DNA of 30,162 nt from a virus (IMGVR_UViG_2545824717_000013); one strand, 5' to 3'; counted from the stretch's first letter, positions 698-27,616 are shown. Translations and numbers: made by a program. The notes: generated by a model not told the origin, from the letters alone.

Positions 698-1060
698 GGG
701 GCTGATTCTGGATTCGACGGGATTTGCGAAACCCAAGGTGCATGCCGAGGGGCGGTTGGCCTCGTAAAAAGCCGCAAAAAATAGTCGCAAACGACGAAAA
801 CTACGCTTTAGCAGCTTAATAACCTGCTTAGAGCCCTCTCTCCCTAGCCTCCGCTCTTAGGACGGGGATCAAGAGAGGTCAAACCCAAAAGAGATCGCGT
901 GGAAGCCCTGCCTGGGGTTGAAGCGTTAAAACTTAATCAGGCTAGTTTGTTAGTGGCGTGTCCGTCCGCAGCTGGCAAGCGAATGTAAAGACTGACTAAG
1001 CATGTAGTACCGAGGATGTAGGAATTTCGGACGCGGGTTCAACTCCCGCCAGCTCCACCA
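698..1060 (+). ncRNA. ssrA: tmRNA (SsrA), about 363 nt
   Basis: Starts GGGGCTGATTCTGGATTCGACGGG and ends GGTTCAACTCCCGCCAGCTCCACCA; contains tag-peptide reading frame region (GCAAACGACGAAAACTACGCTTTAGCAGCTTAA); position after smpB. Confidence 0.93.
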
Positions 1061-1064: not shown

Positions 1065-1070
1065 AATCAA

Positions 1071-1103
1071 GGGGTTACGTGAAAGCGTAGCCCCTTTTTC
1101 TTT
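1071..1103 (+). terminator. Rho-independent terminator downstream of ssrA
   Basis: GGGGTTACG / CGTAGCCCC stem (one G-U pair) with tgaaag loop followed by a T-run. Confidence 0.5.
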
Positions 1104-1129: not shown

Positions 1130-1183
1130 CTTTTGCGTCCATCTTGCCTGTCGCCATCTTGAAATCATGCAAAGAGGTTTCAC

Positions 1184-1507
1184 ATGGAAGAACTTCACTT
1201 TGTTTACATCAATGCAAATGGTCGTATCGCTGTTCACTCTATACAGAGCATCAGTTATAGCGAAAATCATATACAGGGCATTTGTAAGAACACCGATCGA
1301 ATAAAAACCTTCCGAAAAGACCGCATTCTTAAACAGTACGATTCACCAGAACAAGCCATTCAGGAATGCGCGTCATTCCTCCCCGAAAGCTACTCACATC
1401 TCACTAAGCAGTCTGGTCCGAAAAAAATACATTCGATGTGTGTTTCACCGGATTTAAGAAAGCAGATAAAGAAAGATTGGTTGATAAGGCGAATGAACAA
1501 GGATTAA
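1184..1507 (+). CDS. WYL-like domain protein (N-terminal part of a probable WYL-BRCT gene split by a frameshift)
   Basis: ORF with AGAGG RBS; motif ...HIQGIC...RIKTFRKDRI resembles the WYL-domain FRxDRI signature; overlaps the next ORF in another frame. Confidence 0.5.
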   Translation: MEELHFVYINANGRIAVHSIQSISYSENHIQGICKNTDRIKTFRKDRILKQYDSPEQAIQECASFLPESYSHLTKQSGPKKIHSMCVSPDLRKQIKKDWLIRRMNKD

Positions 1508-1665
1508 CGGTAAGAACCTCTATAACCCAAAGCCTTCAGATGCTCTGTTGCGGTTACAATGCAGGCCCATCAAAAGTATCGGCAGCCAGGATGAAAGGCA
1601 CAATCATCATAGATGAGCTTGGCTTTATACATTTTCTTGAAACGGGTGAGATCCCAGATGAATAA
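1438..1665 (+). CDS. BRCT-like domain ORF (probable C-terminal part of the same gene, GTG-initiated in the ORF track)
   Basis: Sequence FTGFKKADKERLVDKANEQGLTV...IIDELGFIHFLETG resembles BRCT domains (as at the C-terminus of NAD-dependent DNA ligases); frame is open back to about 1408. Confidence 0.45.
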   Translation: MCFTGFKKADKERLVDKANEQGLTVRTSITQSLQMLCCGYNAGPSKVSAARMKGTIIIDELGFIHFLETGEIPDE

Positions 1666-1692
1666 AAACCTGCCGTAGCAGGTTCTCTTTCT
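1664..1692. terminator. Bidirectional hairpin between convergent BRCT-like ORF and ogr
   Basis: AACCTGC-cgta-GCAGGTT stem-loop flanked by A-run upstream and T-rich run downstream. Confidence 0.4.
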
Positions 1693-1907
1693 CAAAAATT
1701 CATATGCCCCTGACCACCTGGCAATGGATGTGGAGGAGCAGTAGCAATCAGTGCGGGTGTCACAATAAACCGGACCACTGTTTCATGAGTAACAAAAGTG
1801 CTCCCGCAGTTAATATTTTGGCACTGGCAGTAACGCTCTTTGGTGCTTTCAGTTACTTGAAAACTGCTCCTTGTGTGTGCCGCATGACCACACTTTGGAC
1901 AATTCAT
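1692..1907 (-). CDS. ogr: Ogr-type zinc-finger late-gene transcription activator
   Basis: MNCPKCGHAAH...ERYCQCQNINC: four-Cys zinc finger typical of P2 Ogr; start placed at internal Met of the 87-aa ORF to give about 72 aa. Confidence 0.8.
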   Translation of the reverse strand: MNCPKCGHAAHTRSSFQVTESTKERYCQCQNINCGSTFVTHETVVRFIVTPALIATAPPHPLPGGQGHMNF

Positions 1908-1978
1908 CATATCCAGATCCCTACCTTTGCTATCAGAATCATTGTAATGATACACAAAATATCAATATTGAGAACACT

Positions 1979-8958: not shown

Positions 8959-9531
8959 TCAGGGGGATTCATTGATCTTATTTGCCGGAAATTTTCTATA
9001 AATGGTAGAAACGCCTACATCAAAAATCAGTGCAATACGCTGTCTTGATTCTCCGGCCTCGAGTAAACGCCCAATCTGTGCCCACTGTTCGGTGGTCAAC
9101 TTAGGACGGCGTCCACCTACTCTGCCTTTGGCACGAGCTGCAGCCAGCCCTGCCCTGGTACGTTCAACTATCAGTTCGCGTTCCATTTCAGCCAGGGCAC
9201 CCATGACATGAAAAAAGAAACGGCCCATTGGGGTACTGGTATCAATACTGTCAGTCAGGCTTCTGAAATTCACACCACGCTGGCGCAACTCTTCTATCAG
9301 CGTAACAAGATGCCGCATACTGCGCCCCAACCTGTCCAGCTTCCAGACAACCAGCGTGTCTCCTGCCGATAGTGTCCTGAGTAGTTTTTTCAGCCCCGGT
9401 CTGTCGGACTTAGTGCCACTGATTTTGTCCTCAAAAATCCGCTCACATCCCGCGCAGTTCAGTGCATTACGTTGCAAATCGGTGTTCTGGTCATTTGTTG
9501 ACACGCGTACATAGCCAATAAGCATGATCAT
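8959..9531 (-). CDS. Hin/Gin/Pin-family serine DNA invertase
   Basis: 190 aa; MLIGYVRVSTNDQNTDLQRNAL... catalytic Ser motif and C-terminal HTH; closely resembles e14 Pin from memory. Confidence 0.9.
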   Translation of the reverse strand: MIMLIGYVRVSTNDQNTDLQRNALNCAGCERIFEDKISGTKSDRPGLKKLLRTLSAGDTLVVWKLDRLGRSMRHLVTLIEELRQRGVNFRSLTDSIDTSTPMGRFFFHVMGALAEMERELIVERTRAGLAAARAKGRVGGRRPKLTTEQWAQIGRLLEAGESRQRIALIFDVGVSTIYRKFPANKINESP

Positions 9532-9552
9532 CCCCCTGAATAAAAACCGGAG

Positions 9553-10047
9553 ATGATGCCAGTTAGCTGTTACCTCTGCATTTTCTTAAACGTTGGTTTG
9601 GGAGAAGCGGCAAAACGGAATGTGGGCAACGGGGAAAACCAAATCCCTGATATGTCTTTCTGGACGGTTACTGGTGGCAATGGAAATTTTGTGATTCGTC
9701 AACCTGACGGGCTAATCACTCAGATGGTTACTGTAAGTATAAGCGGTCCAGTGGCGATGAATGGAATGACTGATAATGCTTATGCCATTACAGGTTCTAA
9801 TAAGTCTTATATTGCCACAGCCACATTGCCCTTTGTATTTCCTAATAAGGTGCTGGGCGTTATCCCTCTGGTATCAACAACAGCTTATGGCGGTGTATCC
9901 AGTAATATTACAGGTTCATACGCGACGGCGGTTTGTTCTTTTGCCGCTGTCCGGGGGAATAATACGATTGTATTCAAAGTCGACAAACCACTGAATGCAG
10001 CCTTTCCTTCAGATACCAGCGTCTCAGCGTTAATCATTGGACGGTAA
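9553..10047 (+). CDS. Alternative tail-fibre C-terminal variable segment (Sv'-like), promoterless in this orientation
   Basis: 164-aa ORF starting just outside the gix-like site and followed by a tfa gene; mirror arrangement of the minus-strand pair. Confidence 0.55.
   Translation: MMPVSCYLCIFLNVGLGEAAKRNVGNGENQIPDMSFWTVTGGNGNFVIRQPDGLITQMVTVSISGPVAMNGMTDNAYAITGSNKSYIATATLPFVFPNKVLGVIPLVSTTAYGGVSSNITGSYATAVCSFAAVRGNNTIVFKVDKPLNAAFPSDTSVSALIIGR
9581..9606. other. gix/hix-like 26-bp invertase crossover site (left end of invertible segment)
   Basis: TTTTCTTAAACG-TT-GGTTTGGGAGAA: imperfect dyad resembling Gin/Hin/Cin recombination sites. Confidence 0.5.
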
Positions 10048-10049
10048 GA

Positions 10050-10493
10050 ATGAACTCAGTATTCTTTTCACCCGGAAGTAAAAGTTTTTATCTACAAGAA
10101 TTGTTTCCAGAATATGAGGATGCGGGAACGCTTCCAGATGATGTTATTGAAATTACCCGAGAAACATATGAGCAATTTCTTGGGCTGCATCCAGAAGGGA
10201 AAGAAATTGGCGCTGACAGTTCAGGACGGCCAATATGGATTAATTCCCCACCGCCTTCAAAAGAGGATGAGGTGTTGATGGCTGAAATGAAAAAAATATC
10301 TTTGGTTTCAGAAGCCAATACCTACATCAACACCCATCAGTGGCCTGGCAAAGCTGCTATTGGTCGTCTGAAAGGTAACGAGCTGGAGCAATATAATTTA
10401 TGGCTGGATTATCTGGACGCACTGGAACTGGTTGATACCTCCAGTGCTCCAGATATTGAATGGCCTACGCCTCCGGCAGTTCAGGCCAGATGA
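10050..10493 (+). CDS. Tail fibre assembly protein (alternative copy)
   Basis: 147 aa; conserved C-terminal ...TSSAPDIEWPTPP motif shared with the convergent tfa (TSTAPNVIWPELP). Confidence 0.75.
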   Translation: MNSVFFSPGSKSFYLQELFPEYEDAGTLPDDVIEITRETYEQFLGLHPEGKEIGADSSGRPIWINSPPPSKEDEVLMAEMKKISLVSEANTYINTHQWPGKAAIGRLKGNELEQYNLWLDYLDALELVDTSSAPDIEWPTPPAVQAR

Positions 10494-11067
10494 CATTCGG
10501 CGCGGTGCTGGTATCTATTGCCGTCACCGCGTCAATGTAATCCAGCACAGCGTTAAGCCGGGTTGTTTCTGCCTGCGTCAGTTTCCGTCCGGCCTGTAAT
10601 TTCAGCTGAATCAGACTAATGGAAGCCATTGCAGCATCAATCAGTGACTGGCGCTGTGCTTCTGCCGCGTCTACTGCGGCGCTATGCTGTGCCTCAGTAT
10701 CCGTCACCCATTTCTCACCATCCCATTTATCGTATGGCGTTAATGGGGCGATAGTGGTTGTATTATTAGGGTAATCACCCGGAGCTGTGATTTCTTTTGA
10801 TTCTCCTGTTTCGGTGCTAAAGACGATTTCACCGCGATGGTCTGGCACATATTCCCATGAGTTAAAATCTGCAGAACGGCAGATTGCATAACCAGCTTTG
10901 TATGCGCCTGGAGCATCTAAACAGGAACATGCCGGAATGCCGACACCAACGGCAAGATATTCAGTTGATATGGAAATATATTCCCGTGTTTCACCATCAT
11001 AATTATAGACAGTAATATCCCCCGCCTTCGTGGCAATAAACTCGCTATTTAATACAGCGCTATCCAT
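10465..11067 (-). CDS. Tail fibre assembly protein
   Basis: 200 aa, immediately downstream of tail-fibre C-terminal segment; 3' ends of the two tfa genes overlap convergently. Confidence 0.8.
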   Translation of the reverse strand: MDSAVLNSEFIATKAGDITVYNYDGETREYISISTEYLAVGVGIPACSCLDAPGAYKAGYAICRSADFNSWEYVPDHRGEIVFSTETGESKEITAPGDYPNNTTTIAPLTPYDKWDGEKWVTDTEAQHSAAVDAAEAQRQSLIDAAMASISLIQLKLQAGRKLTQAETTRLNAVLDYIDAVTAIDTSTAPNVIWPELPEA

Positions 11068-11537
11068 TATGCAGCCCTCACAATGTAGTTAAATGCGATG
11101 TTGCGTGGACGGACACCGAAATAAGAAGTAACACCATTCATTGTCAAATTTCCAGAGCCAAAAGCGGTAAAACCAGAACCAGCATTAACTGCCGAATCCG
11201 CGTTTCTGACAAAGTTTTTGGGAGGTGAACCGGAGACACCAGCCGAAATATCATCAGCGTTACCGCCATTGCCGTGGTGGTTAGTTATCTTTGTTTCCGC
11301 CTGCGCCGTCAACAAACCTCGTCCAGAGTCAACCCCGCGCCCGTCATCCCAGCCGCGAATAAACTCACCACGTAAATCAGGCAATTTATTTGTCGGATAA
11401 GCCTTTGCCAGTTCCGGGTATTCTTCAGCAGAAAAAGCTGCACCATTGCATTTCAGCCAGCCTGTTGGCGGAGTGGCTGAAGGCCACGGAACAGGGACAC
11501 CAACAGGTAATGCAGAGCCTTCTCCCAAAGCCGTCAT
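11067..11537 (-). pseudogene. Tail fibre (gpH-like) C-terminal receptor-binding segment lacking the constant N-terminal part
   Basis: 156 aa with tail-collar-like motif PVGVPVPWPSATPPTGWLKCNGAAFSAEEYPELAKAYP; only about 21 bp separate its first codon from the terminase gene on the other strand. Confidence 0.75.
11519..11533. other. Partial gix-like half-site (right end of invertible segment) abutting a deletion junction
   Basis: CTTCTCCCAAAG is the inverted counterpart of the outer half of the left site; the expected second half is not recognisable. Confidence 0.35.
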
Positions 11538-14367: not shown

Positions 14368-15066
14368 TTATTTGTTTCTTCTTTGTTCACGCCTTGTCTT
14401 GGCTTCGATAAGGCGTTGAGGTTCAGTGTAAAGCCGTTCTAAAAAAAGATAGGTAAAATCTTCAAGATCCTCAGCAGCAGCTTTATCCAAAATACCTTCA
14501 TGCGCTCCATCATTTCCGTCATCTTTAACGCATTCAGCTAGTTCCCTTAAAGCTTCAGGCAGTAGATGATTATCAAATAACCACTCCATTCTTAACCCTA
14601 GGCTTCTCCTTATTTTTTGCGCAGGCCCTTGCTCCCCATCAGGAAGAAGTCCTTTTGTGGCATAATCAAGGCAAAGCCTAAACATGGTTGCTGCTGCATT
14701 ATAACAACCTATAGCCAAACATTTCGCCCCTTCCTCATATGCACTATTGATATGCTCAGGTAAGAACTCTGGTGGCTCCTCTACTGCTAAGTCTGCTGGT
14801 GATATAGGCCTAACAACCTCTGCAACTTCCTTTAAGCCGAATATTCCACTTTCCCAATTATAGCCATCTAAAGTTTTATTTTTCGTTAAAGGTCTGCAAA
14901 GAAACATTGTCGTTTTATGACACTCTCGGCAAACACAATAGACCTCGTACTCGTATGTTTTACCCCCGCCCAATGCATTGTAAACCCTAGTGCAATTCAG
15001 CCCATTAACATCAAACGCTATTTTTTGTGATCCACATCGTGGACAGTCATCCACTAACATAACCAT
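14368..15066 (-). CDS. Zinc-ribbon plus DUF4145/HEPN-like domain protein (candidate abortive-infection/defence gene)
   Basis: 232 aa in AT-rich insert; N-terminal CPRCG...CRECH Cys pairs; C-terminal AATMFRLCLDYATKGLL...GNDGAHEG resembles DUF4145 as I recall it. Confidence 0.55.
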   Translation of the reverse strand: MVMLVDDCPRCGSQKIAFDVNGLNCTRVYNALGGGKTYEYEVYCVCRECHKTTMFLCRPLTKNKTLDGYNWESGIFGLKEVAEVVRPISPADLAVEEPPEFLPEHINSAYEEGAKCLAIGCYNAAATMFRLCLDYATKGLLPDGEQGPAQKIRRSLGLRMEWLFDNHLLPEALRELAECVKDDGNDGAHEGILDKAAAEDLEDFTYLFLERLYTEPQRLIEAKTRREQRRNK

Positions 15067-15175
15067 GTCAATTACTCCTCCCTATGAAAAAAATGAGTTG
15101 AAAAATTGAATATTCACGACTTAAAAAGCTAGCCTATTTAACACCATAATTTCATTAATTCAACCATGAGCGCGC

Positions 15176-15196
15176 GCTCGTATCCCCGCCACGCCT
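15176..15196. other. Probable cos site (cohesive-end region)
   Basis: Minus strand reads GGCGTGGCGGGGATACGAG, whose first 13 nt match the 186/P2-type cohesive end as I remember it (GGCGTGGCGGGGAAAGCAT); GC-rich island between two AT-rich genes. Confidence 0.4.
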
Positions 15197-15355
15197 GCCC
15201 GCTTTATGTAGTGGTTTTCATGCGCCTGCATGACATAAGCAAAAGCCCGCCACTCCTGGCAGGCCTCAGCTAAAACGATCCTCAAACGATCATGCGGATT
15301 CATGCGGCATAGACATGCACAATCGCCAAAGCGGGCATCGAGACTTTTTGGAAAC

Positions 15356-15967
15356 CTACGTAACCACAGTTAATGTGTGCATCCTGTCTCGAATTGCATC
15401 ACACGTCTCATCAAAAAGCTTGGTAATGGTTGTACGGTTCAACTCTGCCTCTTTCCAATAATTTTGCCCGTCAAAATCTGGATCGCTATGCTGAAACGAT
15501 ATTGACTCTGAAAGGCATTCCTTCCGGAAACGGTCCAAGATTATATAAACCTCTGGTGAGATGAACGGTTTGTTAGACTCAACACTTGTAACAAAAGTAT
15601 TAAATGTATCGAAAAAAACTTTCAACCTTCTAAGTTTTCTCTCTTCAAATGGTTCGTTGAGGTCGACATGATCCAGCGCAGGCCTAAGCTTAAGCACGCT
15701 TTCTCTTATTTCAAACATCGAATTCCAAATGAGACTATATGCTGATAACTCCTTATCAAAATACGCTTTCGTTACATAAACAGAATTGTCTAACTTAGCC
15801 TTTATTCTTTCATTAGTTGCACTCAGTTGTGATTGAAATTCAGCAATATCTTTGTTTAGCCGCGACTTATATCTTTCTAAATAAACTTTCCCGATCCAAA
15901 CAAATATGCCAGATGCAACAAAAGACACCCCACCCAACGAAGCCAGAACTTTAAAGACTAAATCCAT
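15356..15967 (-). CDS. Membrane-anchored protein of unknown function (candidate defence/moron gene in the P2 tin/old position)
   Basis: 203 aa, AT-rich; hydrophobic N-terminal helix FKVLASLGGVSFVASGIFVWIG followed by a charged, helix-rich soluble region. Confidence 0.55.
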   Translation of the reverse strand: MDLVFKVLASLGGVSFVASGIFVWIGKVYLERYKSRLNKDIAEFQSQLSATNERIKAKLDNSVYVTKAYFDKELSAYSLIWNSMFEIRESVLKLRPALDHVDLNEPFEERKLRRLKVFFDTFNTFVTSVESNKPFISPEVYIILDRFRKECLSESISFQHSDPDFDGQNYWKEAELNRTTITKLFDETCDAIRDRMHTLTVVT

Positions 15968-16015
15968 TGCGCCCCCACCTGCAAAAATAGTATTCCAATA
16001 TAAGCTAATACATTT

Positions 16016-16327
16016 TTAATCAAATAGGGAATAATTCGCGTCAACCTCATCACTTCTCTGCTCTCCCCTGGTGACTTCCATCAAAAACCCGAGGCCGTCA
16101 TATAGCGAAACGGAGAATTCCAGCTCAAGCCAGAAGCAGTCTTCATAGGTGCGGCCCAACCAAAAACCTCCGCCACACTCCTTTGGTCGTTGAAAGAAGA
16201 CCCAGCCGCTATGGGTAAACCGCTCCAGCACCTGGTCCCGATAAATAATCTGGTGATTACTGTCTTTTTTACCCTTGGCTAACGCCTCGCTACTCTCGTT
16301 ATTCAACCTTGCTGACGTCAGAATCAA
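16016..16327 (-). CDS. Hypothetical ORF (TTG start), possibly a remnant
   Basis: 103-aa ORF in the same frame as the gene A fragment but separated from it by stop codons; no recognisable motifs. Confidence 0.25.
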   Translation of the reverse strand: MILTSARLNNESSEALAKGKKDSNHQIIYRDQVLERFTHSGWVFFQRPKECGGGFWLGRTYEDCFWLELEFSVSLYDGLGFLMEVTRGEQRSDEVDANYSLFD

Positions 16328-16432: not shown

Positions 16433-17683
16433 TCAGTTCAACGCCGTTTGCCGACCCTTTACGGATGCGGATACCGTCGCATTTGTCCAGGTTGGGTTTG
16501 GTCTGCCGTTATTGAGCGTGGAATGGAAACGTGACGGACAGGTAATGGTGTAGAAAACGGCGCAATCACCACGCATTTCCGCGATAAGCTCCAGACCTTT
16601 AACACAGGCCATCATCTCATTGCGGCGGTGCGCCGGGTTGCTGCTGCTGGCGTTTACCACGTCTTCCATATCCAGCGTGTCGCCCTCTTCGTTCACCAGT
16701 TCATGAGAACGGAAAAACTCCAGTGACTTGCGGCGCTGCTCACGTTTATGCATCACGGCTTCATAGCTGACATAGGGAGATGCTTTTTTGCTGACCAGGC
16801 AGACAGCACGCAACTGCTCTTCCCGCCATTCGCAACGCATCTTCCATAATTTCCGATACCACCAGTCGGCACACAACATACGCGCCAGCGAACCCGGAAT
16901 GAGTTCATAGGGCACGGGTTTACGGCGGTTTCTTTTCCGACGGAGTTGCTCAAACGCAGGCGGAATAACATCCAGACGCAGGGTTTCCGCTGCCACCTTT
17001 TCCCATGTTTTGCGGATTTCTTCTGGCTTAACGTCATCGGTGGCATACAAATCACCACAAGCGGCATCAAGGCACATGCTCATATGCGCAGCGACAAGGG
17101 TAGACAGGCGCTTCACCTGATCCTGACTCATTTCAGGCAGGATAAGCAGGCCGTCCAGCCCTTCATGGCTTGCCATAAAACGAAAAGATGCAGATAGCTG
17201 GCTGTCGCGTACATGCTCCAGTCGTTCCAGACATGGCTTAATCGTCTCACGTAAATAGCGGGAATAAGCCTTTGGCCTGCCTAGGCTGCTAAAGTATTCA
17301 ATACGTTGCATCAGCGGCTTGCTGATATGGGAAGGCTGGGCGTTGACGTCCGCCAGAATGACCATATCCGGATTAAAACGCTGCTGCTCATGCGCCAGCT
17401 TTGCCCGGCTAATGAGCTTATCCTGCTCCATTTCGCGCTGGACAGGATCACGTGATTCATTAAAAAAATAACGCTCCCAGACCTGATCACTCAGTGCCTC
17501 GCGGCGCAGTTGTTCCTGCTCGTTATCGGCAGCGTACAGAGTGATCAGGTTTGAAAGCGCAGAAACCGGCGCAACTTCCGCCGGGTCCAGATAAGGGTTA
17601 ATGGCCTTTTTCGGGCTGTTCCATGAGAACGCTGCGGCAGCCTCGTTAAAGCCGCAGCAGTTGTTCATATCGGCATGACTCAT
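16433..17683 (-). pseudogene. A: Replication initiation endonuclease gpA, N-terminal fragment (3'-truncated)
   Basis: 416 aa ending shortly after a rolling-circle motif-1-like FYTITCP; P2 gpA is about 760 aa and the catalytic Tyr region is not present downstream. Confidence 0.7.
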
Positions 17684-21362: not shown

Positions 21363-22376
21363 ATGACCATCAGAAAACAGCCGAACGGAAAATGGTTGTG
21401 CGAGTGTTACCCGAACGGGCGTGACGGCAAGCGCGTGCGCAAGCAATTTGCGACAAAGGGCGAGGCTGTAGCATTCGAAAACTTCACCATGGATCAAGTG
21501 AACAAAAAGCCGTGGCTGGGTGAAAAGGAAGATCGGCGGCGTTTGTCAGAATTGATTGAGCAGTGGCACTCCCTTTACGGCCAGACGCTCGCAGACCCCA
21601 AGCGCCTGATGGCGAAACTGAATATTATCTGCAATGGCCTAGGCGATCCCGTCGCCTCTGAATTAACCGCCGGTGACTTTACGAAATATCGTGAAGCACG
21701 GTTGAAAGGAGAGGTACGTAACGAAGAAGGCGCGCTAATGTCGCCAGTAAAACCACGCACGGTAAACCTTGAACAGCGTAACTTATCATCCGTTTTTGGC
21801 ACCCTTAAGAAGTTGGGCCACTGGTCAGCGCCTAACCCACTCGCCGGGCTACCGACATTCAAAATCGCAGAGGGTGAATTGGCATTCTTAGCCTTGGACG
21901 AAATTAAACGCCTGCTTGATGCCTGCGCTGATTCTCAAAGCCCTAGCCTATTGATGATCGCAAAGGTATGCCTAGCTACCGGCGCGCGGTGGAGTGAAGC
22001 CGAAAACCTTCAAGGCCATCAGTTATCAAAATATCGGATCACCTATACCAAAACCAAAGGCAAGAAAAACCGAACTGTACCGATATCTCAGGAGCTATAC
22101 GACGAACTACCCAAAAACAGGGGGAAGCTGTTCACGCCATGCAGAAAAGCTTTTGAACGAGCAGTGAAGCGGGCCAATATAGACTTACCAGCGGGACAAT
22201 GCACTCATGTGCTACGCCATACTTTCGCCAGTCATTTTATGATGAACGGCGGAAACATACTTGTTTTGAGAGATATTTTGGGTCATTCTGATATCAAGAT
22301 GACCATGGTATATTCACACTTTTCACCAGATCATCTTGAAGACGCAGTTTATAAAAACCCACTCAACTTTTTATAA
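21363..22376 (+). CDS. int: P2-family tyrosine integrase
   Basis: 337 aa with C-terminal catalytic motifs (ATGARWSEA...HVLRHTFASHFMMNGG...LGHSDIKMTMVYSHF). Confidence 0.9.
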   Translation: MTIRKQPNGKWLCECYPNGRDGKRVRKQFATKGEAVAFENFTMDQVNKKPWLGEKEDRRRLSELIEQWHSLYGQTLADPKRLMAKLNIICNGLGDPVASELTAGDFTKYREARLKGEVRNEEGALMSPVKPRTVNLEQRNLSSVFGTLKKLGHWSAPNPLAGLPTFKIAEGELAFLALDEIKRLLDACADSQSPSLLMIAKVCLATGARWSEAENLQGHQLSKYRITYTKTKGKKNRTVPISQELYDELPKNRGKLFTPCRKAFERAVKRANIDLPAGQCTHVLRHTFASHFMMNGGNILVLRDILGHSDIKMTMVYSHFSPDHLEDAVYKNPLNFL

Positions 22377-22385
22377 TGTACAGAC

Positions 22386-24128
22386 TTACATTGATAAATA
22401 ATCCAACTCATCTTTCATAGGAATAATTTGTTCATATAATCGATGATATGATTTACCAATTGCCCCTCTAAATTGAATTAATTTAGGTGGATTATTACCT
22501 ATATTAATAATATGATCTTGTGCAATACCCGGATAAGGATCAATGAAAATTATTTCAGCGACCTCTAATTGATATGCTTTTTTTGCACAAAGTTCACAAG
22601 GACTTGCTGTAGTATACAACTTACCACCTTGGACACCAACGCCACCATATTTAGATAATTGTAAAAAGGCATTTTCTTCAGCATGTAAAGCTCTGGTATG
22701 GACCTGATTCCCTTTTTTATTATCATCAAGACTATTATGAATATCCTTGAAGCAATATGACAAATTACGTCCTTTAAAAATTTCAGAGCTTGATTCAATC
22801 GCTCTAAACTTTATTAAATTACTTTTAGCTTTCTTTCTAAAAAGAGCATCATTTCGCTCATATGAGCTATATACTTTCGAATCAAAATCATTGATCAACC
22901 CATCGAGTGATCTCATTGAACATGGTATCTGCCCTTTAGCTACATCATTCCAACCAACTGATTTAATTGAATTATCATTATCTGTAACAACGGCACCGAC
23001 CTGCCTCGATATACATCCAGAGTTTAATTTAACAGTATATGCGACCTGCATAACTCGCTCCATCGCTGTAGGAGTGATCAATCCAGGATGCTTCATTAGA
23101 GCGATATACCATGCAAGTTGTGCTTTAAGTATGTTATTGTTATCAAACTCATTTTTAGGATTATAAAGATGTATATCTGAAATTTCTATGCATTTCGTTA
23201 CATTAGGGTTCGTTAAATGTTTATATTGATTGTCTTTATCTCCTTTTCCTGATTCAATATCATCAATGTGTTTAATGCGCTCAGATGAAAACTTGTGTAG
23301 CTTCTGTAAATATTTTTTCCTATGCTCATCAGGAGCATTAATTGATACCAAATGGAATGCAGCATATCTATCTTTAAAGAATTTAGCTTCATATGGATTA
23401 CGTATAGCATCAATAACTACTAATGCCTTACCACCTTGGCTTTTTCTAATTAGCTTAATGACCCTATTAATAGTTTCAGGCAAATGAAATACCGATTTTG
23501 GATCAAATTCTTCTGTTTCATAGTTTGTTTTTACTTCACCAAGCCGTCTAACAGATTTTCCAGCGGCCTGATAAGTTGATACATAAAGACCTGTATTTAT
23601 CTCATTAAGTTCTTTTTTGAAGTTATTAGTGAAAAACCTAACCAAATGCAATGTTTTTCTTATGTTAGATACATCTAGATTATCGAGATCTAATTCTTGA
23701 CTATGATCAATAAGTGCTTTTAATATATCCGTCCTTATTTTTCTAAGTTGTGTTTTTGAAAATGCTCCTTCATTAAGTATCTTGTTTAATTTATCTTCAT
23801 CAATGCTATCTTTAGTTGACGACGTGATGAAGTGTGAAAGTTCAGTATGTGACATTGCTAACAAATAAACTGATAGCAAGTCACTAACCTTGATTGAGTA
23901 AAATGCCTCCCAATGATTCTCAGTGAAATCCTTAACTATCTTATAACGCTGTAAATCTAAACCATTATAAAAATCAGTTAATTTATCCACATCGGGAAAT
24001 ACTGTCTCATTACTTTCTAAAATAGTTGCTGCTGTAGTACAACCAGAACCAGTTCTTCCAGTTAAGCCAACTAGAATAAACTGCCCATTTTCTAAAAAAA
24101 GTTCACTTACGAATTTCTGTGTTTTCAT
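22386..24128 (-). CDS. Kinase-like plus cytidine/dCMP-deaminase fusion protein (antiviral dCTP deaminase DCD/AvcD-like)
   Basis: AT-rich ORF; C-terminal HAEENAF...SPCELC zinc-binding deaminase signature; N-terminal GLTGRTGSG P-loop-like motif; start placed at Met preceded by GGGG RBS (ORF track extends to 24284). Confidence 0.75.
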   Translation of the reverse strand: MKTQKFVSELFLENGQFILVGLTGRTGSGCTTAATILESNETVFPDVDKLTDFYNGLDLQRYKIVKDFTENHWEAFYSIKVSDLLSVYLLAMSHTELSHFITSSTKDSIDEDKLNKILNEGAFSKTQLRKIRTDILKALIDHSQELDLDNLDVSNIRKTLHLVRFFTNNFKKELNEINTGLYVSTYQAAGKSVRRLGEVKTNYETEEFDPKSVFHLPETINRVIKLIRKSQGGKALVVIDAIRNPYEAKFFKDRYAAFHLVSINAPDEHRKKYLQKLHKFSSERIKHIDDIESGKGDKDNQYKHLTNPNVTKCIEISDIHLYNPKNEFDNNNILKAQLAWYIALMKHPGLITPTAMERVMQVAYTVKLNSGCISRQVGAVVTDNDNSIKSVGWNDVAKGQIPCSMRSLDGLINDFDSKVYSSYERNDALFRKKAKSNLIKFRAIESSSEIFKGRNLSYCFKDIHNSLDDNKKGNQVHTRALHAEENAFLQLSKYGGVGVQGGKLYTTASPCELCAKKAYQLEVAEIIFIDPYPGIAQDHIINIGNNPPKLIQFRGAIGKSYHRLYEQIIPMKDELDYLSM

Positions 24129-24336: not shown

Positions 24337-24385
24337 ATGTAGGAATTTCGGACGCGGGTTCAACTCCCGCCAGCTCCACCAAATA
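24337..24385. repeat. attR of prophage remnant / attL of the downstream island: 49-bp ssrA 3'-end duplicate
   Basis: Identical to 1016..1064. Confidence 0.8.
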
Positions 24386-24450: not shown

Positions 24451-24547
24451 CGTCTATTGTAGTCTAGTGAGAATTGCTGAGAACTACGAGTTATGGCACC
24501 CTGAATGGGACCCACGAAGATGGGTCCTAAAATCGAGGGTCCCAAAC

Positions 24548-25777
24548 ATGGCCAAAATCGCTAAGAAGCTCACTGACACTGAAATCAAAAGCACCAAACC
24601 TGCCGAAAAAGAGGTTAACCTTTTTGACGGCGATGGTTTGCTGTTGCGAATCGCTCCCCTGGCGAAGGGAGGGAAGAAAAATTGGTATTTCAGATATGCA
24701 GTGCCTGTGACCAAAAAGCGAACTAAGGTGAGCTTAGGAACCTATCCTCACCTTACACTTGCGAAGGCACGAGCTTTACGTGATCAATACTTGTCGTTGC
24801 TTACAAATGGTATAGACCCCCAAGTTCATAACAACCAAAAAGCCAATGCACTGAAAGATGCCACGGAACATACATTTCAAGCAGTAGCCAAGAAGTGGCT
24901 TGATGAGAAAGTCAAAACGTCAGGCATCTCCCAAGATCATGCTAACGACATCTGGCGAAGCCTAGAGAGAAATATCTTTTCCACATTGGGTGATACCCCA
25001 ATTAAGGAGATTCGCCCTAAAATGCTTAAACAGCATTTAGAACCCATAGAAAAACGAGGTGTCCTTGAAACACTTCGCCGCATCATATCCCGCCTGAATG
25101 AAATTTTCCGCTATGCAGCAACAGAAGAACTCATAGAATTCAACCCGGCAGACAACCTGGGGCAACGGTTCAGCAAGCCAAAAAAACAGAATATGCCAGC
25201 ATTACCCCCTTCCGAACTCCCTCGCTTCTTGGTTGCTCTAAACAATGCTTCTATCCGTTTGGAAACAAGGCTACTGATTGAGTGGCAACTTCTCACATGG
25301 GTTCGCCCAGGTGAAGCTGTTCGCACAAGATGGTCAGATATTGATATTGAAACTGGCATGTGGAACATCCCGGCGGAGTTTATGAAAATGAAGAAGCCTC
25401 ACAAAGTTCCACTGAGCAAAGAAGCTTTGCGAGTTTTGGATTTAATGAAAGTCATCAGCGGGCATAGAGAGTGGGTGTTCCCCAGTATCAAAGCTCCACT
25501 CAATCACATGCATGAACAAACAGCTAATGCGGCCATAATCCGTATGGGTTTCGGAGGTGAGCTTGTAGCTCACGGTATGCGATCCATTGCTAGAACGGCT
25601 GCTGAGGAGTCTGGCAAGTTTAGGACTGATGTCTTAGAAGCCGCCCTTGCCCACTCGAAGAAAGATGAAATAATTGCAGCCTACAATCGTGCAGAGTATC
25701 TCACTGAACGGGTGGTTCTCATGCAATGGTGGAGTGACTATGTTTCGTCTCAAAAATGCAAAGTTATTGCCGCATAA
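24548..25777 (+). CDS. intA: P4/CP4-57-type tyrosine integrase
   Basis: N-terminal LTDTEIKSTKP...DGDGLLLRI...WYFRY typical of P4-family integrases; start placed at MAKIAKK with GAGGG RBS (ORF track starts at 24467). Confidence 0.88.
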   Translation: MAKIAKKLTDTEIKSTKPAEKEVNLFDGDGLLLRIAPLAKGGKKNWYFRYAVPVTKKRTKVSLGTYPHLTLAKARALRDQYLSLLTNGIDPQVHNNQKANALKDATEHTFQAVAKKWLDEKVKTSGISQDHANDIWRSLERNIFSTLGDTPIKEIRPKMLKQHLEPIEKRGVLETLRRIISRLNEIFRYAATEELIEFNPADNLGQRFSKPKKQNMPALPPSELPRFLVALNNASIRLETRLLIEWQLLTWVRPGEAVRTRWSDIDIETGMWNIPAEFMKMKKPHKVPLSKEALRVLDLMKVISGHREWVFPSIKAPLNHMHEQTANAAIIRMGFGGELVAHGMRSIARTAAEESGKFRTDVLEAALAHSKKDEIIAAYNRAEYLTERVVLMQWWSDYVSSQKCKVIAA

Positions 25778-26059: not shown

Positions 26060-27616
26060 ATGGCTAGCGAAAATGACAAAAATCATAGAGTTAGGGTCGC
26101 GCAGTACTTGAGGATGTCTACCGACCATCAGCAATATTCTTTACATAATCAGTCCGAATATATCAAAGATTATGCTGAAAAGAACAATATGGAAATCGCT
26201 TATACCTACGATGATGCAGGTAAGAGCGGAGTCAGTATCGTAGGCAGGCATTCTTTGCAGCAGTTACTTAGCGATGTAGAACAAAAGAAAATAGATATAC
26301 AGGCTGTATTATTTTATGATGTGAGCCGTTTTGGTCGTTTTCAAAATAGTGATGAAGCGGCATATTATTCCTTTCTATTTGAGAGAAATGGTGTAGATCT
26401 TATATATTGTTCCGAACCTATACCCACTAAAGATTTCCCTTTAGAGTCCTCTGTTATACTGAATATAAAAAGATCTAGTGCTGCATATCACAGCAGGAAT
26501 CTATCTGATAAGGTATTTATAGGGCAAGTAAATTTAATAAAGCTTGGTTATCATCAAGGCGGTATGGCTGGTTATGGGCTGAGACGTCTTTTAGTAGACG
26601 AAAATGGCATAGCTAAAGAAATATTGAGTTTCCGCAAAAGAAAGAGTATTCAAACAGATAGGGTAATATTAATTCCGGGACCAAAAAATGAAATAAAAAT
26701 TGTAAATAGAATATATGATCTCTTTATAGATAATAACGTCCCAGAATTCATTATTGCTGAGAGATTAAATGAACAGAACATACCTGCAGAAAATGGAACA
26801 TTATGGACTCGTGCAAAAATACATCAAATTTTGACAAATGAAAAATATATTGGAAACAACATATATAACAAAACCTCATCTAAATTAAAAAGTAGGCTTG
26901 TAAAAAACCCCAAACATGAATGGGTTAGATGTGACAAGGCATATAAACCTATTATTTCAAAGAAAAAATACAATAAAGCTCAAGAAATAATTCAGCTCCG
27001 ATCCATTCATTTGACTAATGAAGATCTATTAGAAAAACTAAAACAAAAATTAGAATCTAATGGAAAACTATCAGGCTTTATCATTGATGAAGATGATACA
27101 GGCCCTTCATCTTCTGTTTATAGAACCCGATTTGGTGGTCTTTTAAGAGCATATACTTTGATTGGTTATAAGCCAGAACATGATTACAGCTATCTCAAAA
27201 TAAATGAAGCACTAAGATCATTTTACTCAGAGATAATTGAGGATTTTAAGGGTGAAATTTTAAAAAGTAACTGTCATATAGACGAGTATAAATATGCCCC
27301 AATGCTTTACATCAATGATGAGTTTTTAATTTCCGTCCTTGTTACTAAATGCATACATATGAAATCAGGTAAACTTAGATGGAAAGTCCGGTTTGATAAC
27401 TCACAGAAAGCAGACATAACAATTGTTATACGAATGAATTCACAAAATATTTCACCTCTTGATTTTTATATCATACCAAAGATTGAAAACGAATATAATA
27501 AAATGTGCATGACGGAAACAAACAACATTCGATTAGATCTCTATAGATTTGATAATCTTGATAAACTTCTACAAATTATTACTCGCATGAAAGTGAGGGA
27601 ACTATATGCTGCCTGA
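26060..27616 (+). CDS. Large serine recombinase
   Basis: 518 aa; N-terminal resolvase-type catalytic domain (VAQYLRMSTDHQ...YTYDDAGKSG...VSRFGR) followed by a long recombinase/zinc-ribbon-type extension; AT-rich. Confidence 0.8.
   Translation: MASENDKNHRVRVAQYLRMSTDHQQYSLHNQSEYIKDYAEKNNMEIAYTYDDAGKSGVSIVGRHSLQQLLSDVEQKKIDIQAVLFYDVSRFGRFQNSDEAAYYSFLFERNGVDLIYCSEPIPTKDFPLESSVILNIKRSSAAYHSRNLSDKVFIGQVNLIKLGYHQGGMAGYGLRRLLVDENGIAKEILSFRKRKSIQTDRVILIPGPKNEIKIVNRIYDLFIDNNVPEFIIAERLNEQNIPAENGTLWTRAKIHQILTNEKYIGNNIYNKTSSKLKSRLVKNPKHEWVRCDKAYKPIISKKKYNKAQEIIQLRSIHLTNEDLLEKLKQKLESNGKLSGFIIDEDDTGPSSSVYRTRFGGLLRAYTLIGYKPEHDYSYLKINEALRSFYSEIIEDFKGEILKSNCHIDEYKYAPMLYINDEFLISVLVTKCIHMKSGKLRWKVRFDNSQKADITIVIRMNSQNISPLDFYIIPKIENEYNKMCMTETNNIRLDLYRFDNLDKLLQIITRMKVRELYAA

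Follow-up and report, generated by a model that had tools for sequence, protein, structure and literature searches.

A one-nucleotide loss at a mutation-prone A-tract probably splits a conserved WYL-BRCT gene in a P2-like prophage

Two open reading frames (ORFs) lie in different frames between the left attachment site and the ogr gene of a P2/186-like prophage, raising the question of whether they are two genes, the halves of one broken gene or the parts of a gene that is switched at a homopolymer. The window analyzed here is the whole 30,162-nt stretch of viral DNA (IMGVR_UViG_2545824717_000013) in which they occur. A first-pass annotation of the sequence had described the upstream ORF as WYL-like and the downstream ORF as BRCT-like, had called the pair a moron, and had offered two explanations: a recent frameshift pseudogene, or an on/off switch in which homopolymer slippage produces a WYL-BRCT fusion.

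The two reading frames and their junction

The locus comprises the following features, with positions counted from the first nucleotide of the window.

1173-1177, plus strand: AGAGG, a Shine-Dalgarno-like motif read from the sequence, 6 nt 5' of the ATG at 1184
1184-1507, plus strand: ORF1, 107 aa, ATG start, from the ORF list; no Pfam match
1184-1426, plus strand: native N-terminal 81 codons of the WYL-BRCT gene, encoding the barrel (residues 3-52), helices (55-74) and the start of the linker
1421-1427, plus strand: A7 homopolymer, context ccgAAAAAAAtac; A8 in homologues; zero frame CCG-AAA-AAA-AUA
1426-1665, plus strand: native C-terminal 79 codons (N82...E160) and stop, encoding the BRCT domain, in the -1 frame
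1427-1507, plus strand: out-of-frame tail of ORF1 and its TAA stop; 26 non-native residues, IHSMCVSPDLRKQIKKDWLIRRMNKD
1438-1665, plus strand: ORF2, 75 aa, GTG start, from the ORF list
1667-1684: hairpin found by consensus scan between the convergent WYL-BRCT and ogr genes, likely a two-way terminator
1692-1910, minus strand: ogr/Delta-like late-gene activator, 72 aa, a 100% tblastn match to WP_000980501.1, convergent with the WYL-BRCT gene

ORF1 and ORF2 overlap by 70 nt. ORF2 is in the -1 frame relative to ORF1 and its frame is open from position 1408, preceded by a TAA at 1405-1407; the addition of one A, or a -1 slip, fuses the two. The overlap, the extent of the open BRCT frame and the ability of the A7 run to join both frames had all been noted in the first-pass annotation, and were confirmed in the sequence. 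A promoter scan between the attachment site and the ATG at 1184 found no plus-strand sigma-70-like promoter.

The intact form of the gene was found in relatives. Megablast with positions 1100-1700 (601 nt) as the query returned 181 E. coli RefSeq complete-genome records, and the best matches were 602 nt long for the 601-nt query and contained one 483-nt CDS encoding 160 aa. The intact E. coli protein is WP_000391793.1, annotated as 'BRCT domain-containing protein' or as 'hypothetical protein'. In the alignment, A8 in the relatives versus A7 in the window was the only frame difference, the sequence on either side of the tract being identical, and an alignment with two E. coli genomes, together with a census of the tract, placed the 1-nt deletion in the run at 1421-1427. 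The product obtained by joining ORF1 through K82 to the -1 frame from 1426 (...SGPKK/NTFDVCFTGF..., the slash marking the junction) equals the intact homologues residue for residue. An A7 run by itself is not remarkable, as the whole window contains 19 of them versus 14 +/- 4.6 expected; this one is meaningful because it is the sole reading-frame difference from a conserved single gene.

In some NCBI annotations each ORF is a protein of its own (WP_244575986.1, 107 aa, and WP_244429482.1, 75 aa), in keeping with a WYL-only and a BRCT-only gene that each have their own start. However, the intact homologues of all genera are single, fused proteins of ~160 aa. The GTG of ORF2 at 1438 has no Shine-Dalgarno sequence, a start there would cut into strand beta-1 of the BRCT domain, and the last 26 residues of ORF1 match nothing. 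The probability that these are two separate genes is negligible. The intact homologues, each a single 160-aa protein encoded with A8, uphold the earlier suggestion that a break at the A-tract has divided one gene into the two ORFs. In annotation, the two 'hypothetical proteins' should be combined as one disrupted gene.

Occurrence and inheritance of the shortened tract

Tract length in homologues had been named at the outset as informative, and A8 proved to be the normal state: it was found in all 31 IMG/VR contigs and in 14 of 15 JGI/ENA metagenome contigs, the exception being an A6 at 1.1x coverage. A 71-nt probe matched A7 in 1 of 164 RefSeq complete-genome E. coli records; among the matches listed, all 39 other rows show the 72-nt footprint of A8. 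Non-A8 alleles make up about 1% of loci in unselected samples. The sole RefSeq A7 record is a 15-kb extra contig of strain 13P477T, the chromosome of which has A8. This strain has three copies of the locus (NZ_CP019273.1, NZ_CP019274.1 and NZ_CP019275.1; the chromosome and two small extra records), of which one has A7 and another an indel at a different place in the gene; the two small records are probably contigs, poorly polished, of phage DNA that had been excised or duplicated.

Alleles were also counted by contig, using exact-sequence look-ups in a collection of 15 billion proteins. The exact ORF1 of the window (WP_244575986.1) is on 42 contigs, and the index of the collection has it in 73 blocks, drawn from NCBI, ENA and Logan. 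Another A7 haplotype (P0114) accounts for 85 contigs, and ~80 more carry other A7 variants. A9 alleles are on ~46 contigs and A6 alleles on 12, and an A10 allele is also present. At least 1000 contigs have the commonest intact sequence, and 26 have the window haplotype in its repaired, intact form.

Homopolymer deletions are a typical long-read error, and the A7 of the window would be a miscall if the isolate truly had A8. Other A7 records look error-prone, among them L065, which also has split gpD and smpB genes, L066, an A7 contig at only 1.9x coverage, and the extra contigs of 13P477T; databases also contain heavily frameshifted versions of the WYL-BRCT protein. Some A7 records, such as L066 and L065, are probably artefacts. 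The window's A7, however, is common to five independent assemblies, which include a 2013 draft (GCA_000357645.1) and one contig at 20x coverage. Four of the five are 100% identical to the window over the full 1,980-nt gene-ogr-gpD region (gpD being next to ogr in the window), and the fifth, L038, is 100% identical over 1,177 nt and carries a different deletion, from gpD to the invertase gene. Because five independent assemblies share it, the A7 allele is inherited and is not a one-off miscall. The A7 site is also the only homopolymer indel in ~17.5 kb that is >=98.9% identical to strain LF4-1, the closest complete genome, which rules out a generally error-prone assembly of the window. An artefact at this position is thus extremely improbable.

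Recurrence was examined in a tree built by neighbour joining from 45 loci (1,979 aligned sites, of which 243 are variable). The A7 loci are scattered over the tree, and their nearest neighbours are A8 loci 0-5 SNPs distant. Fitch parsimony, with A8 at the root, required a minimum of 11 A8-to-A7 changes, or 7 when four suspect assemblies were left out. Both A7 and A8 occur on one identical 1,979-nt haplotype (L066 and L049), the A7 contig being the one at 1.9x coverage. The A8 run is a mutational hot spot, and the same lesion arose there many times.

The gene is also broken in other ways. A nonsense allele at C123 is on 73 contigs, an IS1 insertion interrupts the gene in strain CFSAN051542, and deletion-fusion alleles exist in several forms. 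General decay is favoured over a dedicated switch as the explanation of these nonsense, IS1 and deletion lesions. These alleles, which circulate in E. coli, were seen in L003 (NZ_CP020835.1, 1585-2844) and in the proteins P0151, P0152 and P0035.

The surrounding prophage is inserted at ssrA, between the following features.

1-483: smpB
698-1060, plus strand: ssrA (tmRNA; ARAGORN), the 3' end of which (1029-1060) is the attL core
1069-1096, plus strand: terminator-like hairpin with T-run, found by consensus scan just inside the prophage, 3' of ssrA
24350-24381, plus strand: attR core, an exact 32-nt repeat of the ssrA 3' end (0 expected by chance)

This P2/186-like prophage (1029-24381) is ~23.3 kb long, compared with ~34 kb in E. 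coli LF4-1. Missing are most of the tail-fibre gene H and the baseplate, lysis and head genes from I through O (I, J, W, V, S, R, the lysis genes, X, L, M, N and O); of the replication protein gpA, residues 1-407 of 804 remain (16463-17683) and the C-terminal half is absent. The prophage is defective, with ~10 kb of essential genes lost.

The simplest reading of these observations is replication slippage at a mutational hot spot, in a gene that is dispensable to lysogens: one conserved 160-residue WYL-BRCT gene, split by the loss of one A from A8, at a site of recurrent mutation that is not a built-in switch. A probability of about 80% is assigned to this reading, and of the two explanations first offered the recent frameshift pseudogene is the one that the data favour. 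P2/186-like prophages at ssrA encode a conserved 160-residue protein comprised of an N-terminal WYL-like barrel, a variable linker and a C-terminal BRCT domain, and replication slippage would have removed one A from its gene in the window. Translation from the ATG at 1184 would then leave the native frame after K82, add 26 unrelated residues and stop at 1505-1507, and the BRCT domain would stay untranslated in the -1 frame. The resulting allele would be a loss-of-function allele, or at best one of strongly reduced function, inherited stably in its lineage and found here in a prophage that is already defective. As a frameshift it is of small importance: it adds one to the homopolymer pseudogenes of decaying prophages, and the lesion is ordinary, in a family already catalogued.

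Recoding or switching at the tract

In the A8 allele the tract encodes K81-K82-N83 (AAA-AAA-AAT) of the linker, which is the least confidently predicted and most variable part of the protein (linker pLDDT 67). A Lys-Lys run at this position is absent in the orthologues of Citrobacter, Klebsiella, Enterobacter, Yersinia, Pectobacterium and others. Neither the two-ORF arrangement nor the slippery run is conserved, the homologues being in frame with A8. The segment downstream of the tract (1428-1500) folds at -8.9 kcal/mol, with z = 0.10 versus shuffles, so that no stimulatory RNA structure is present there, and there is no GGAGG-like Shine-Dalgarno motif upstream of the A7 run. A programmed frameshift is disfavoured by the lack of a stimulatory structure in this segment and by the loss of the gene through nonsense mutation and IS1 as well.

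An A7 allele could nevertheless leak. A -1 slip of tRNA-Lys on G-AAA-AAA before the rare AUA codon, or the addition of an A by RNA polymerase, would let it still make some wild-type, full-length WYL-BRCT protein, and the outcome would be reduced function with two products, a WYL-only protein of 107 aa and the full-length protein of 160 aa. A -1 shift at 1421-1426 reads AAT-ACA-TTC..., which is exactly the native sequence. The site resembles A-AAA-AAG of dnaX and C-AAA-AAA of pDEST17, as G-AAA-AAA is the zero-frame reading of the A7 allele and the native protein is regained by a -1 shift; unlike those sites, it is not conserved and has neither Shine-Dalgarno-like nor hairpin stimulators, and the normal allele needs no frameshift. 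At C-AAA-AAA, -1 ribosomal frameshifting of 25-60% has been reported in E. coli, in the absence of a Shine-Dalgarno sequence or strong hairpin (Belfield et al. 2007, PMC1851650), although these rates were obtained under T7 over-expression. Efficient bacterial transcriptional slippage begins at roughly nine As (PMC1088944), and the allele has seven.

The relative abundance of the alleles also bears on leakage. A7 alleles are ~4x commoner than A9 alleles (~200 versus ~46 contigs), which favours leakage, but homopolymer slippage is in general biased towards deletions, and this bias would explain the ratio equally well. A stricter version, in which A9 is missing since only -1-rescuable alleles survive, was ruled out by the A9 and A6 alleles on ~58 contigs. 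By analogy with the sites above, low-level rescue of A7 by -1 slippage at G-AAA-AAA-AUA is possible; a leaky allele that still supplies full-length protein is nonetheless considered unlikely.

The second explanation of the first-pass annotation was the on/off switch. As a contingency locus, the A-tract would be retained for reversible switching, by which populations of lysogens would hedge. Like homopolymer contingency loci, the WYL-BRCT gene is switched off recurrently by length variants of a coding mononucleotide run: A6, A7, A9 and A10 alleles are found on several haplotypes, with at least 7-11 independent A8-to-A7 events, and recurrence of this kind is expected of a weak contingency locus too. 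The haplotype that carries both A7 and A8 points the same way, although the coverage of its A7 contig is low. Unlike at contingency loci, the tract is short (eight As are few for a switch), the off state is rare, with A8 at ~99% of loci in unselected samples, and outside the Escherichia allele the tract is absent, the orthologues having no Lys-Lys run. In addition, A7 is clonally stable across at least five assemblies, and the same gene decays by irreversible lesions (nonsense, IS1 and deletions). The switch proposed earlier did not stand up to a near-universal in-frame A8, the variable linker and the lack of the tract in other genera, and phase variation is very unlikely.

Natural alleles with A6, A7, A8, A9 and A10, and those with the nonsense and IS1 lesions, provide ready, isogenic-like material for tests of function. 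This natural allele series is also suited to testing frameshift rescue at G-AAA-AAA-AUA at native expression levels.

The intact protein and its place in P2-like phages

Full-length WYL-BRCT homologues, which the first-pass annotation had proposed to seek, were found: in addition to WP_000391793.1, a profile search of 1.84 billion representative proteins returned 175 clusters at E <= 1e-30 and 851 at E <= 1e-10. PHROG 2561 matches the protein over its full length (E = 2e-76). The label 'DNA ligase', given to PHROG 2561 and to RefSeq phage records, is a mis-annotation derived from a match to the BRCT domain of LigA. Only positions 548-650 of the 652 in the LigA model align, at 17.6 bits versus a cut-off of 444, and the adenylation (KxDG), OB-fold, zinc-finger and HhH domains of a ligase are absent from a protein of only 160 aa. 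Single DNA-binding BRCT domains are known from the C-terminus of LigA and from RFC1 p140, from which the WYL-BRCT protein differs in having no adenylation, OB-fold or HhH domains. Members of the family are annotated as 'DNA ligase' or 'putative exonuclease' in NC_049342.1, NC_008201.1 and NC_070909.1, with which only the BRCT domain is shared; the 'phage genome' NC_049342.1 includes the host genes recN, bamE, ratA and smpB. Both labels are wrong, and the family is one of small WYL-BRCT proteins, widespread in public protein collections.

The domain assignments were examined in a structure predicted with AlphaFold2 from 37 homologues (pLDDT 91). From the N-terminus, the model shows a five-stranded barrel (residues 3-52), a pair of helices, the linker and a domain of the order beta-alpha-beta-beta-alpha-beta-alpha. 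The barrel is of the Sm/SH3-like type and its closest structural relatives are solved WYL domains, while the C-terminal domain has the BRCT fold, as the first-pass annotation had proposed for this half. Pfam BRCT (PF00533) scores below its gathering threshold (18.6-20.1 bits versus 21.3, E = 8e-4 to 2e-3), and many family members pass it. By sequence, the only matches among solved structures were weak ones to the BRCT domains of RFC1 and Rad4.

The WYL-like assignment was supported by the fold and by homologues, but not by the E. coli protein's own Pfam score. Neither the intact 160-aa protein nor ORF1 matched Pfam WYL (PF13280), and the PADLOC WYL model gave a marginal match (E = 0.04). Homologues reached with the family profile (E <= 1e-36) do pass PF13280, with 28.5 (P0226), 27.6 (P0263), 25.1 (P0229) and 22.8 bits (P0272) against a cut-off of 21.8, and these matches lie at the position equivalent to the E. 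coli barrel. Unlike known WYL sensors, the E. coli protein is under the Pfam threshold and has I-Q-G-I-C in place of the WYL tripeptide. It also lacks the winged helix and the WCX domain of PafBC, DriD, CapW and BrxR, and is not a transcription factor of that type: strand 1 begins at residue 3, no N-terminal winged HTH is present and no HTH Pfam model matched.

Three residues, T89, G90 and K131, are invariant in the 37 homologues, and K131 is at the N-terminus of helix 129-137; the arrangement T89-G90...K131 matches the pattern of a BRCT phosphate pocket, which is S/T-G following strand 1 with a Lys opening helix 2. Y8, T42, F91 and K93 are also invariant, F43 is nearly so, and R44-K45-D46-R47, which completes a T-F-R-K-D-R-I motif, is found in most homologues. 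Pfam searches of the fusion partners of longer family members found extra BRCT copies or nothing, and the apparent N-terminal extensions of some enterobacterial matches are upstream mis-starts.

Makarova et al. (2014, PMC4012209) list the same two-domain combination, with no description of its function, its phage context or variation among alleles, and propose that WYL senses negatively charged ligands and is linked to defence. Literature searches for WYL with BRCT and prophage, for BRCT with P2-like and ogr, and for BRCT with anti-phage found nothing beyond this architecture list. PADLOC matched the BRCT region to the candidate PDC-S48, besides the marginal WYL match, and placed the gene in no listed defence system.

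Distant P2-like phages have the gene in their immunity/integration region, on the strand of the repressor gene, with the following arrangements.

Mannheimia PHL101: gene starts 4 nt after the cI stop
Yersinia ruckeri prophage: gene starts 9 nt after the Phage_CI_repr (cI) gene
Vibrio PV94: cI-like gene, gene, one further gene, int
Serratia: repressor gene, one further gene, gene, int
Burkholderia: XRE gene, one further gene, gene

The E. coli phages have, in circular order, cI, int, (dCTP deaminase), attP, gene, ogr. As attP lies between the gene and cI-int, integration moves the gene to the opposite end of the prophage, beside ssrA. The position directly 3' of the repressor gene on the same strand, as in the distant P2-like phages, is like that of lysogeny cargo such as lambda rexAB; unlike rexAB, the E. 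coli phage gene is split from cI-int by attP. The earlier term 'moron' was half right, as P2-like phages conserve this accessory gene in their repressor/integrase (lysogeny) region. The family adjoins the repressor and integrase genes, the usual place of exclusion and sensing functions that are expressed in lysogens.

The intact protein would be made in lysogens as part of the repressor/integrase region and would bind nucleic acid. By analogy with DriD, PafBC and CapW, its WYL domain may bind single-stranded DNA, and the BRCT pocket (T89-G90...K131) may recognize a DNA nick or 5'-phosphate end, or else a partner that is phosphorylated. A role in superinfection exclusion, defence or DNA-damage sensing is proposed with low confidence. 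It is decidedly unlikely that A7 is not dead, slippage giving the 107-aa protein and a minority of full-length product, and that the family is a lysogeny factor for single-stranded DNA and 5'-phosphate ends (cos ends or replication intermediates) that acts in exclusion or damage sensing.

The neighbourhoods of marine homologues are not P2-like and gave no information on role. Four marine relatives from metagenomes (P0097, P0104, P0105 and P0107; L079-L081) have two predicted transmembrane helices and an acidic spacer before the WYL-BRCT region, which suggests that some members of the family may act at the membrane.

Other features of the prophage and its flank were recorded. An invertase (recombinase) gene is at 8962-9525, and alternative tail-fibre/assembly segments have 33-88% protein identity to LF4-1; the diverged tail-fibre segments (8962-11528) end at the deletion junction near 11528. 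Cargo genes that may be defence genes occupy 14368-16327 on the minus strand, between the portal gene and the truncated gpA, which is the position of the old/tin hotspot of P2.

14368-15066, minus strand: zinc-ribbon and DUF4145 protein, 232 aa
15356-15967, minus strand: protein of 203 aa, hydrophobic N-terminal segment, no Pfam match
16016-16327, minus strand: 103-aa ORF

The 580-aa product encoded at 22389-24128 (minus strand) contains a dCMP/cytidine deaminase domain; its relatives in RefSeq go by the name 'anti-phage dCTP deaminase'. The deaminase gene lies between int (21363-22373) and attR, and the attachment site is therefore flanked by cargo on both sides. Directly after attR there is a P4-type tyrosine integrase gene (24467-25774, plus strand; Arm-DNA-bind_3 and Phage_integrase), followed by that of a large serine recombinase (26060-27613, plus strand); this is a second mobile element, in tandem at the regenerated ssrA end.
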